Assembly (NCBI GenBank): GCA_015062435.1
Contig: SUUR01000005.1
Location: forward strand, 5,563 to 69,562
Length of the DNA stretch: 64,000 nucleotides
Direction of reading: 5' to 3'
Source of the DNA: Alphaproteobacteria bacterium
GTDB lineage: Bacteria; Pseudomonadota; Alphaproteobacteria; RF32; CAG-239
Shown: one piece after another, positions 6,001 to 9,000 of the stretch
Layout of the letters: each line of letters begins with the position of its first letter
Numbering within the stretch: the first letter of the stretch is position 1
Made by a program: the position numbers

Positions 6001-9000
6001 ATTTAAAAACATTTCTATCCCGACTTTGGTATATTTGGCAGTTGCTTTAAATGGCCAACATGCAATCAAAAACGGAGCCAGTCCGCCGGCAACACCCATT
6101 TGCACAATGGCATCCAGCAGATAAAAAACAAACGCAATGCTGAGTAAAAAGGCAAAGACTACCAAAATTCCGCCCATAAGCATCATCTCTAAACCATCTC
6201 CGATATTTTTAATCAACTCGGAAAGACTACTTGTCATAATATTACCGCCAATACACCACAATTCTGCACCGATAGCTTGCATAAATGATAAATCTTGCTG
6301 AACTTTTACAACATACCTTTCAATATCGTTATAAATATTATAATCAAAGTGTAAACCGCCAATCTCTTTACCTGCCTGATGAATATATTCGCCATTTGCA
6401 TTATACGGTAATGAGGAAAAAACATCATCAGAACTGACAAGGCTACTGCCTAAGGTTAGTCCGGCTTTTAGTAACGGACGAATTCCATATTCAAATATTT
6501 GCTGTGAGTTCATCAGTAAAACACAAGCAATAATGACTTTGTAACTTTGTTTAATAAAATTGTTAATAAATTTGGGAATATCTTGCTTGGTTAGAGTGCT
6601 AACATTCATTAATATCTGGATAGCTATCCAAATTCCCAATCCTAAAGCCAAAATTTGCATAAAATCATATGCCATTTTGCTAAATGCAATATCTGTCATG
6701 CTTGCGCTACCATCATAAACGACACCTAACAATGTACAGAAAAAACATCTTTTATGGTTATTAAGTTTAACCGGCAAAACTTCACACCAACCAAACGCTT
6801 CGGTCTTTTCGGTATCGGCATAAGCAATAGTATCCTTATCTCCTCTTAATAAGACATATGTTCTGGGAGGGTTTTCATTGCTGACAGCGGAAATATAATC
6901 ACCTTTGCTGAAAAAGCTTTTGATTTTATAACATTTTTCAGTACATTCATAGTATGTTATTTTTAGAAATAAACCGTTTTCATTTTCTTGTTTACTGGAA
7001 TAACATACATATGCTTCAGTGTCTTGCCATTTATCAGCAATGTATTGGCTTTGTACTCTTAAATAGCAATAATTACTGCTCAAATCACATAAGTTGTTAC
7101 CGCATTGAATCAGTTTTTCATTGGTTTTTCCATCACTTTGAAGAGCTTGGATAAATTTAGTGAGCCCTTTTTCGGTAGCAAACTCAAAAGAACTTTGTGC
7201 TTTTATTTTAGAAGTTTCTTGAGCATAAGAGAATCCGGACGATATCAAAAGTATTATCGCCACATAAAAAAGTGAAAATATATTAGTCCGTAGTCCCATT
7301 TACTGTTCTGCCAATTATTCTTAGTACTCAAGAGACGGATAGACCCCTCCCTTAAATTATATCATAACATATAAATTACTTATAAAGTGTTACAGTTTTT
7401 TGATTTTTATTTAAAATATAATTTTGTACACAAATTGTCTTTTTTTTGACTATTTTCTTGATTAATATTCTTCTTCGTTTAATATGCTGTATAGATTAAG
7501 AGATATTATATTCTCAAAGAATCGTTGTTTTAATTTACTGATTTTGTGAGGTAATCTAAAATGGAAGAAATTATTTTCCCAAACCAAATAAGAATGTATC
7601 GTCGTTTGCGTGGACGTTCCATGCAAGAATTGGCCGACCATTTGAATGTCAGTCTTTCGGCTATTTCTAAAATTGAAAAAGGTTACCGCAGAGTAGATCA
7701 AGAACAATTAGTCAGAGTCGCTGAATTTTTGGATTGCCCGCTTCAGGATTTGTTTGTCAATGAACAAAATTCTCAGCAAGAAATTGTACAAGCTTGGCGC
7801 AGAGAACAAGAACGCAGAAATAAAATTAATGAAAAATCAGGGCTTAAAACTTTAGGTGCAGGTTTAAGACAAATCAGAAATGAAAAGAATCTTACTTTGA
7901 TTGAAGTAGCTGAAAGTTCTGATATGACATTATCTGTTTATCATCGAATTGAGATGGGACAACGAGAAGTCTCTGATAAAGAATTTAAAAATATCGCAAA
8001 AGCCTTAAAACTTTCTGCAGAAGAACTGAAAGATGAAATTAAAAGCCTTGATGAAAAAGGTATGTTGGAAGAAATTATTCAGCGTAATGATGCAAAATAT
8101 AAACTTCTTTCTAATCCTCGTGGTGCAATTGCGGCTTTCTCCGGCTCTGCTTCTGAAGGACTAAAAATATCTGTTTATGGTGTGGCCGGAAAAGATGGAA
8201 ACATAATTCTTGATTTTGAAGAAGAAATTAAAAAGGTTCAACGTCCGGAAGCTCTATATAATAAAAAAGATGCTTATGCCGTAAATTTGTGCACCAGACG
8301 ATTGGGATCACTGCTTCCTACTCGTTCTATCTTATTTGTAGATCCGCAAGAAGTTGTAAGCGTTGGTGATATTGCCGTATATATGGCAGATGAAAATGAG
8401 GCAAAAATCATCTCTATCAGAGAAGATGATGAAGGACGACTTTACGGAATACGTTGGAATCCGGAAGAAAGAATTGAACTTGGTAATAATGATCTTCCCA
8501 ATGTTCATAAAGTAGTGTTTATTAGCCTGTAAAACTAAATAAAACTCGCAGAAATGCGAGTTTTTTGTTGTTTGTTAACTCTAAATTTACAACATTTAGC
8601 TTAAAATTGATGATATAAATGAATTTTAAGCCAAAGTTTTAGTATGGACATAAATAAAACAATAGAACCTCGCAGAAAACCTCAGCAAAACGGAGAAGAA
8701 GATCCGATTGTTGTGGCTCAGCGTTTCCTAAATATTTATAGGCAAATTCATATTTTTAATGCAGAAAAAAAACAAGCTTTTAATCAAATGTTATTGGAGC
8801 TTTCGCCTCAAATAAGAGGAATGTTCGGACAACTTCCGGGAGGAGCTTTATTACAAGACTATGTTGATGAGTTGGCTGAACAAGCAGGCGTTGAAAAGTC
8901 TATCCAAGCAAATGATGTAGAAATAGCAAGTGAAGATGTTAAGCAAGCTAAAATTTTAGCAACAGCATTGGCAGAAGCTCAAGTTCAGGCAACCACAAAA

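Follow-up and report, generated by a model that had tools for sequence, protein, structure and literature searches.

A conserved promoter-like cassette upstream of VirB6-type secretion genes in uncultured gut Alphaproteobacteria

The secretion locus and the two copies of the element

The stretch of DNA analyzed here (hereafter the window) comprises 64,000 nt of contig SUUR01000005.1 from an Alphaproteobacteria bacterium (assembly GCA_015062435.1; lineage RF32, CAG-239). Pfam scans revealed a chromosomal type IV secretion system (T4SS) locus in the window, within which a short, nearly identical element occurs twice, each time upstream of a minus-strand gene. Copy 1 precedes an operon of three minus-strand genes, namely a 763-aa VirB6-like gene (5008-7299; Pfam TrbL/VirB6, E 3e-9), a TrbL-like gene (3677-5011), and an M23 peptidase gene (826-3663), and on its other side lies the plus-strand gene of a 323-aa XRE-family regulator (7561-8532) with two helix-turn-helix (HTH) domains (HTH_3, E 1.8e-27). 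Copy 2 stands in front of a minus-strand 771-aa gene (36958-39273) with a weak VirB2/TrbC pilin domain (Pfam TrbC, E 0.0033). The minus-strand series to which this gene belongs runs from two VirB2 pilin genes (39981-40388 and 39465-39872) through the 771-aa gene, a 96-aa VirB3-like gene, VirB4 (34024-36453), two VirB8 genes, VirB9, and VirB10 with beta-flower repeats to VirB11 (13405-14373). Four unknown plus-strand genes (8644-13393) separate the VirB11 and XRE regulator genes, and a plus-strand type IVb pilus operon extends from 40654 onward.

An earlier note on this DNA had pointed out two near-identical 38-mers at 7371-7408 and 39341-39378 (plus-strand coordinates), lying 72-109 nt from the start codon at 7299 and 68-105 nt from that at 39273, and both the coordinates and the distances proved correct. 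The 38-mers are 37/38 identical, with a single G/T mismatch at 7387 and 39357. A search of the window allowing up to 3 mismatches recovered no other 38-mer site, and 100 shuffled sequences gave 0 matches. The note's statement that the window holds no further full copy was also borne out, as the next best match to the 50-nt cross-species consensus described below reached only 30/50. The ungapped similarity extends beyond the 38-mer to 61 nt at 85% identity (7348-7408 and 39318-39378; family D15), and the flanks outside these 61 nt are unrelated. Because no match is expected, the copies are 37/38 identical, and their flanks are unrelated, a chance origin of the identity is excluded.

The functionally conserved block spans ~50 bp (7360-7409 in copy 1 and 39330-39379 in copy 2), of which the 38-mer forms the upstream two-thirds in the sense orientation of the downstream genes (minus strand). 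With the -10 hexamer TATGAT set as -12 to -7, the block is composed of a 22-bp core AAAAAATCAAAAAACTGTAACA (-55 to -34), an 18-nt spacer, and an extended -10 TGnTATGAT (-15 to -7; TATACT in copy 2), and the module can be written as AAATCAAAAAACTGTAACA-N18-TGNTANNAT. On the minus strand, both copies read AAAAATCAAAAAACTGTAACA, then [C/A]TTTATAAGTAATTTAT[A/G], and then TGTTATGAT (copy 1) or TGATATACT (copy 2) at the same ungapped offset. Copy 1, covering -55 to -6, agrees with the cross-species consensus at 49/50 positions and has a predicted transcription start near 7354. Its core TAAAAATCAAAAAACTGTAACA (7388-7409) consists of A-tracts and CTGTAACA, is invariant in 36 unique copies, and is kept where the spacer differs; its spacer CTTTATAAGTAATTTATA (7370-7387; -33 to -16) holds the sole difference of the 38-mer from copy 2; and its extended -10 TGTTATGAT (7361-7369) exemplifies the TGnTAnnAT found at fixed spacing in all copies. 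Copy 2 agrees with the consensus at 45/50 positions, with a predicted transcription start near 39324, the core AAAAAATCAAAAAACTGTAACA at 39358-39379, and the extended -10 TGATATACT at 39331-39339, at an ungapped offset equal to that of copy 1 and all orthologs. Within the core, CTGTAACA occupies -41 to -34, and two A6 tracts lie at -55 to -50 and -47 to -42.

Directly after TGn, copy 1 has the conserved -10 hexamer TATGAT (7361-7366) and copy 2 has TATACT (39331-39336). Of the -10-like hexamers proposed in the earlier note, TATACT of copy 2 is thus retained, whereas TATAAT of copy 1 belongs to an overlapping second hexamer. This second extended -10-like motif, TGATAnAAT (7356-7366 in the window), overlaps the conserved -10 and sits 5 nt downstream of it; it takes the form of a perfect TGATATAAT in copy 1 and is present in 27/60 copies elsewhere. 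It is not the universal -10, since the L050 and L121 types (two lineages described below) lack it.

No -35 element was found upstream of the conserved -10, as the hexamers at 16-18 bp (ACTTTA, CACTTT, and ACACTT) match TTGACA at only 0-1 of 6 positions. A promoter for an alternative sigma factor, with (C)TGTAACA as a -35-type element at an unusual distance, would accommodate the sequence GTAACA, which matches TTGACA at 4/6 positions and sits 21 bp from the -10, a distance strictly fixed in every copy. However, the downstream element is a textbook extended -10 of the housekeeping type, no sigma factor gene was found among the proteins of the window or near the loci, and a 21-bp spacer is not known to fit any sigma family, so that this explanation appears quite improbable.

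The core itself is asymmetric and shows no dyad symmetry. An inverted repeat, TAACA/TGTTA, around the spacer was considered as a dyad and rejected, as it is not maintained and -33 and -16 show no covariation. Comparison by eye with known motifs showed that none of the CtrA box, Pho box, vir box, FNR/FixK half-sites, and NtcA site fits the core. The consensus of integration host factor (IHF), WATCAANNNNTTR, is matched by AATCAAAAAACTG at 12/13 positions with an A6 tract before it, and the invariance of every position is above expectation for an IHF site. CTGTAACA occurs three times in the window, the third time at 40498-40505 in the intergenic region between virB2 and the type IVb pilus operon; as this region is 81% conserved throughout across lineages and has no -10 at matching spacing, the third occurrence was given no particular meaning.

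Distribution and conservation across genomes

A genome scan for the element was run on one genome per species (GTDB representatives) with a 21-nt pattern, CTGTAACANTTTATAAGTAAT, in which 20 bases were fixed. The scan returned 33 stretches, 31 of which hold 33 copies in 27 species of gut alphaproteobacterial metagenome-assembled genomes (MAGs), with 1-4 copies per genome as lower bounds. The other two stretches, from a Cytophagaceae MAG and a Bacteroidia MAG, were discarded as chance hits, having nothing in common with the rest beyond the search pattern. Positions that the scan did not select, 14 nt upstream and ~15 nt downstream of the pattern, are nearly invariant, and all copies carry AAAAAATCAAAAAA upstream of the searched positions and TT[A/G]T[A/G]TGnTATGATA downstream. 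Calculated from 36 unique sequences, the information content per position amounts to ~2 bits between -55 and -19 and to 1-2 bits across the -10. The boundaries are sharp, with a drop from 2.0 to <0.6 bits at -56 and beyond and a fading after +2. The 5' untranslated regions (UTRs) and upstream flanks cannot be aligned between species, and even the 5' UTRs of the window and locus L004, which share an identical 38-mer, are unalignable; therefore, the block is under purifying selection.

Sampling independent of the DNA motif was achieved with 80 metagenome loci reached via the regulator protein, in 23 of which the start of the virB6 operon lay within reach. All 23 belong to lineages with a different spacer, namely the L050 type (21 contigs), L047, and L121. 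These three lineages keep the 22-bp core (with two substitutions in L121), exactly 18 nt of spacing, and an extended -10 (TGCTACAAT, TGATATGAT, or TGATAAAAT) upstream of the same virB6 operon, with an 18-nt spacer sequence that is wholly different in each. What all lineages have in common is thus the core, the spacing, and the extended -10; most lineages also constrain the spacer, which can nevertheless be replaced. Furthermore, all 62 core matches in 1.63 Mb of loci have an extended -10 (TATGAT, TATACT, TACAAT, or TAAAAT after TGn) at 18 nt, and of 128 occurrences of CTGTAACA in 1.77 Mb of loci, 60 are followed by an extended -10. As a negative control, 5 chance matches to the 19-nt core among viral contigs, representing two distinct sequences, fall within unrelated coding sequence and lack a -10 at this spacing. 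A BLAST search against plasmids gave no match to the element, and a plasmid or phage origin was rejected. These observations support the location proposed in the earlier note, namely that of a -35/UP element or regulator site of T4SS promoters, with the core at a fixed 18 nt from the conserved extended -10 and in sense orientation, and indicate that the block is very probably a promoter module.

The same data bear on whether such a promoter would need a regulator at all. In E. coli, the proximal UP subsite has the consensus AAAAAARNR, and UP elements tolerate much sequence variation. In a strong factor-independent promoter, the A-tracts would serve as an UP element, the extended -10 would suffice, and conservation would reflect selection for strength. 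AAAAAAC at -47 to -41 resembles the proximal subsite and lies in roughly the right place (the two A6 tracts fit it only partly, with a 1-bp shift), and the extended -10 is near consensus in all copies. However, across >30 species no position of the 22-bp core varies, TC at -49/-48 and CTGTAACA included, with L121 as the sole variant, and the spacer is also invariant in most lineages, a constraint exceeding what contacts of the alpha subunit and sigma explain. A promoter without any dedicated factor is accordingly regarded as unlikely. An element acting as RNA, either as a leader or as a small RNA, would be compatible with the position of copy 2 inside a co-oriented gene cluster with no strong terminator seen upstream. 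Yet the element has no Rfam match (tRNAs were the only hits), folds no better than shuffled sequences on either strand (z +0.4 to +1.8), and is conserved in the manner of a DNA site kept at a constant distance from a -10, leaving this explanation extremely unlikely.

Genes downstream of the element

Wherever the downstream region could be read, the copy points at an open reading frame whose start lies 45-130 nt beyond the core. A conserved gene for a 66-aa two-helix membrane protein follows the element in 14 species and is itself followed by VirB6-like, TrbL-like, and M23 genes, with the XRE gene divergent, and the leader of the XRE-adjacent copies is ~20-25 nt long and ends in AGGAGG. In addition, ~15 further copies directly precede other VirB6-like paralogs, and VirB6-like homologs are found downstream in ~30 loci in total. 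In L006/L007 and L013, the element lies upstream of a homolog of the 771-aa gene, as does copy 2 in the window, even with two unrelated genes inserted upstream. Two copies, both in L017, deviate from these VirB6-like and 771-aa targets, namely a promoter joined to a lipoprotein gene and a truncated remnant, and apart from them the copies are confined to T4SS-related 5' regions. The element is therefore not a dispersed repeat with no promoter association, the alternative that the earlier note had named, and every copy is oriented toward a gene.

In the leader of copy 1 (7300-7360, minus strand), the VirB6 start codon lacks a good ribosome-binding site, and ~50 nt ahead of it lies an orphan one, AAGGGAGGGG. 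Because this orphan site stands where relatives carry the gene of the 66-aa membrane protein, that gene appears to have been deleted from the window. A GANTC site, often GRGAATCTRT or GGGATTCG, was observed in the window (39315-39319) and in leaders of L004, L006, L010, L013, L019, L022, L024-L026, L029, L033, L035, L038, and L039. It lies within ~20 nt after the -10 in 17/21 copies that are not XRE-adjacent, and only 2/15 XRE-adjacent copies have one. GANTC is the CcrM methylation motif of Alphaproteobacteria, and a second layer of control through it is possible.

The arrangement of the genes around the element varies among species. The close relatives L004 and L005 (regulator 93% identical) carry the identical 38-mer ~8.9 kb from the regulator gene, where it heads a virB6 operon running toward that gene. 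Compared with L004 (1-10000), the VirB6/TrbL/M23 block of the window (826-7560) is inverted, and the window therefore carries an inversion. Overall, three arrangements of the VirB6 block, the XRE gene, and the four unknown genes were found, and the XRE gene adjoins the element-driven operon in all of them. L017 (1-2800) holds three copies in 2.7 kb, one of them joined to the leader of a gene for a 334-aa lipoprotein paralog and another followed by only ~20 VirB6 codons and pointing at the 3' end of a convergent paralog; this arrangement may have arisen by promoter capture or through misassembly. A mobile or recombinogenic repeat, serving as a cassette boundary or recombinase site for VirB6 duplication or inversion with only incidental promoter activity, would account for the rearranged copies in L017 and for the inversion, whose junction adjoins the 5' edge of the element. 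However, no terminal inverted repeats, target duplications, or nearby recombinase gene were found, the two window copies are direct rather than inverted, every copy keeps its -10 and points at a gene, and rearrangements of this kind befall any multi-copy sequence, making such a repeat very unlikely.

Copy 2 lies inside the virB2-virB4 cluster. In six related lineages (L008 and L128-L132; VirB4 82-90% identical for L128-L132), the pilin-fusion gene starts 10-65 nt after the second virB2 without the element before it. Copy 2 is therefore a lineage-specific insertion of the cassette into the cluster. A perfect 13-bp palindromic hairpin of terminator-like character just after the stop codon of the 771-aa gene (36902-36931) probably ends the copy 2 transcription unit. 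Downstream of it, before the virB3-like and virB4 genes, lies a conserved sigma-70-like promoter that is independent of the element (TTGCAT, 16 nt, TATCAT; 36770-36797, minus strand), and the TTGCAT-N16-TATCAT motifs together with a conserved TTAAC(G/T)CATTATTCATAAAAAA block were found in 4/5 related loci (L128-L130 and L132, but not L131). With the hairpin and another promoter separating virB3/virB4 from the 771-aa gene, copy 2 does not act as promoter for the virB operon as a whole and most likely drives the 771-aa gene alone, as its own unit.

Several further observations were made at the locus. The divergent region between virB2 and the type IVb pilus operon (40389-40653) is 81% identical over ~265 nt in four lineages, one of them without the element, and holds a perfect palindrome, GACTCTTGCCAAGAGTC (40598-40614); it resembles an independent control region, dense and conserved. 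The VirB10 (TrbI) homolog (1511 aa) is fused to beta-flower repeats, and its 1338-aa neighbor carries beta-flower and RHS-like repeats, so that the repeats in these two proteins give rise to the many 51/105-nt periodic DNA repeats of 14383-22937. Moreover, a 47-nt direct repeat, 83% identical between its copies (53912-53958 and 54078-54124), lies just after a tRNA-Ser gene; in each copy, a T-run comes after the hairpin AACCTACC-TTTA-TGGTAGGTT, and both are probably terminators.

The XRE regulator and a proposed mode of action

The dual-HTH XRE regulator has homologs named as uncultured gut Alphaproteobacteria (e.g., Candidatus Scatocola). Its gene is divergent to the element in the window and in 14 other species, with a shared region of 137-168 nt. 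The divergent position noted earlier for copy 1 is thus recurrent, although not universal, as the distance of ~8.9 kb in L004 illustrates. In the L004, L047, L050, and L121 types, the XRE gene lies at the 3' end of the element-driven operon, and in lineages of this kind 9-10 kb separate it from the element. Across lineages with an overall identity of 73-95%, the stretch of the regulator that contains the two HTH domains and the linker (residues 1-180; 7561-8100) is almost unchanged, whereas the C-terminal domain varies freely. This constancy of the HTH half is paralleled by the invariance of the core and of the promoter block in front of the XRE gene itself. This promoter block (7421-7485, plus strand), a canonical promoter in the intergenic region that also holds copy 1, is composed of an inverted repeat TTTGT-AC-ACAAA, a T-tract, a -35 TTGATT (7458-7463), 16 nt, and a -10 TAATAT (7480-7485), and its sequence, ATTTGTACACAAATTGTCTTTTTTTGTACTATTTTCTTGATTAAT, is essentially unchanged among 15 upstream variants, which stand for 81 loci. 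The block and the element are separate modules, the distance between them varying by species. The C-terminal part of the regulator gives a weak S24/lambda-CI-like signal (Pfam S24, E 0.045, below threshold), and the AlphaFold model, with a mean predicted local distance difference test score (pLDDT) of 64, retrieved HTH proteins and lambda repressor in Foldseek at low TM-score, so that a CI-like fold is only hinted at by the model.

The C-terminal signal bears on whether the element could be a repressor operator, for instance of a CI-like XRE protein, with the spacer and core as the binding site and the T4SS genes held off by promoter occlusion. Regulators with such a domain are usually repressors, and in most lineages conservation spans -33 to -16, a location at which protein binding would obstruct RNA polymerase. 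On the other hand, the spacer is replaced freely in three lineages in which the DNA-binding half of the regulator is unchanged, conserved dyad symmetry is lacking, including any covariation of TAACA/TGTTA, and the CI-like fold is weakly supported, which leaves the operator a doubtful alternative.

The overall best explanation, which we consider likely, is an extended -10 promoter cassette with an upstream core recognized by a factor or by the alpha subunit. Extended -10 (TGn) promoters without a -35 hexamer are known from E. coli, where they depend on an UP element or on a class II activator overlapping the -35 region. Like these, the present element combines TGn before TAnnnT with the lack of a -35 at 16-18 bp and an upstream site at about -55 to -34 in sense orientation. 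It differs from them in that the 22-bp asymmetric site is invariant across tens of species and centered at about -44.5 instead of the classical -41.5. By analogy, RNA polymerase with the housekeeping sigma factor would use the extended -10, and the core would replace the missing -35 contact. The two A-tracts could form an UP-like contact for the alpha subunit, and CTGTAACA, or the whole 22 bp, could be bound by a dedicated transcription factor; the core may thus act via the alpha contact, via the factor, or via both. Recognition of the core by a dedicated factor seems somewhat more probable than its absence. For this role, the dual-HTH XRE/CI-like regulator, which the earlier note had already named as a candidate binder, would be the best candidate, on the grounds of linkage and parallel conservation, and is put forward tentatively. 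The spacer, conserved in the lineages close to the window but replaceable elsewhere, may carry a second, lineage-specific operator.

Comparison with known regulatory systems is instructive in this respect. Scattered T4SS operons are under the control of a single DNA-binding protein in Agrobacterium (VirG with vir boxes) and in Ehrlichia (EcxR at virBD loci). The present system is similar in having one short motif before several T4SS gene sets and a regulator gene within a T4SS locus, and it shares multiple large VirB6-like paralogs with the vir homolog system of Rickettsiales. In contrast to the VirG and EcxR systems, the motif is unrelated to the vir box, and the candidate is a 323-aa protein with two XRE HTH domains and a beta-rich C-terminal domain rather than a response regulator. 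The 137-168-nt divergent region and the inverted repeat TTTGT-AC-ACAAA in the regulator promoter are also reminiscent of the divergent, self-regulating XRE/CI repressors of phage and conjugative-element switches. Unlike in those switches, the element and the regulator promoter block are separate, lie at a variable distance (9-10 kb apart in other lineages), and show no significant similarity.

A more specific and more speculative version, which is possible but doubtful, holds that the core would be the target of the invariant, possibly CI-like, dual-HTH regulator, whose two HTH domains would read the asymmetric site (AATCAA and CTGTAAC, with centers 11 bp apart) and thereby replace the -35 contact, forming a dedicated switch for the VirB6 paralog cassettes and the pilin-fusion gene together. 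Under the overall best explanation given above, the XRE-linked operon (small membrane protein, VirB6, TrbL, and M23 peptidase) is the ancestral site of the cassette, which in the lineage of the window was copied before further VirB6-like paralogs and the 771-aa pilin-domain gene, placing them under one common signal.

Several points weigh against the factor-bound promoter cassette proposed here. The promoter is predicted from motif position and conservation, and A-tracts with an extended -10 might be sufficient for a strong constitutive promoter without any factor. With regard to the regulator, the sequence offers no link between the XRE protein and the core, which is not palindromic; the best ungapped match between the core and the XRE promoter block is 13/18, a value reached by 37% of composition-matched shuffles; and the structure model is of low confidence. 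As for the distribution, with 20 fixed bases in the scan, diverged copies at other gene classes would escape detection, and the copy numbers per genome are minimum values owing to incomplete MAGs and loci limited to 8 kb.

The kind of element described here, a promoter with an upstream recognition site, is already well known. The cassette itself, as a putative promoter of VirB6-type T4SS genes in uncultured gut Alphaproteobacteria, is previously undescribed and unusually well conserved, and a search of the literature on T4SS regulation in these bacteria found nothing relevant. The host gut Alphaproteobacteria are common in human and animal metagenomes and have no cultured representative. For such organisms, a sharply bounded module offers a basis for motif scans for co-regulated T4SS genes and possible effectors, for the design of reporter and binding experiments with the linked regulator, and for the interpretation of metatranscriptomes. 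Moreover, it provides an example of a putative promoter cassette spreading in one lineage, to extra VirB6 paralogs, to the 771-aa gene, and, in one species, to a lipoprotein gene. If the regulator does read the core, a motif scan would define the T4SS regulon and candidate effectors of these bacteria.

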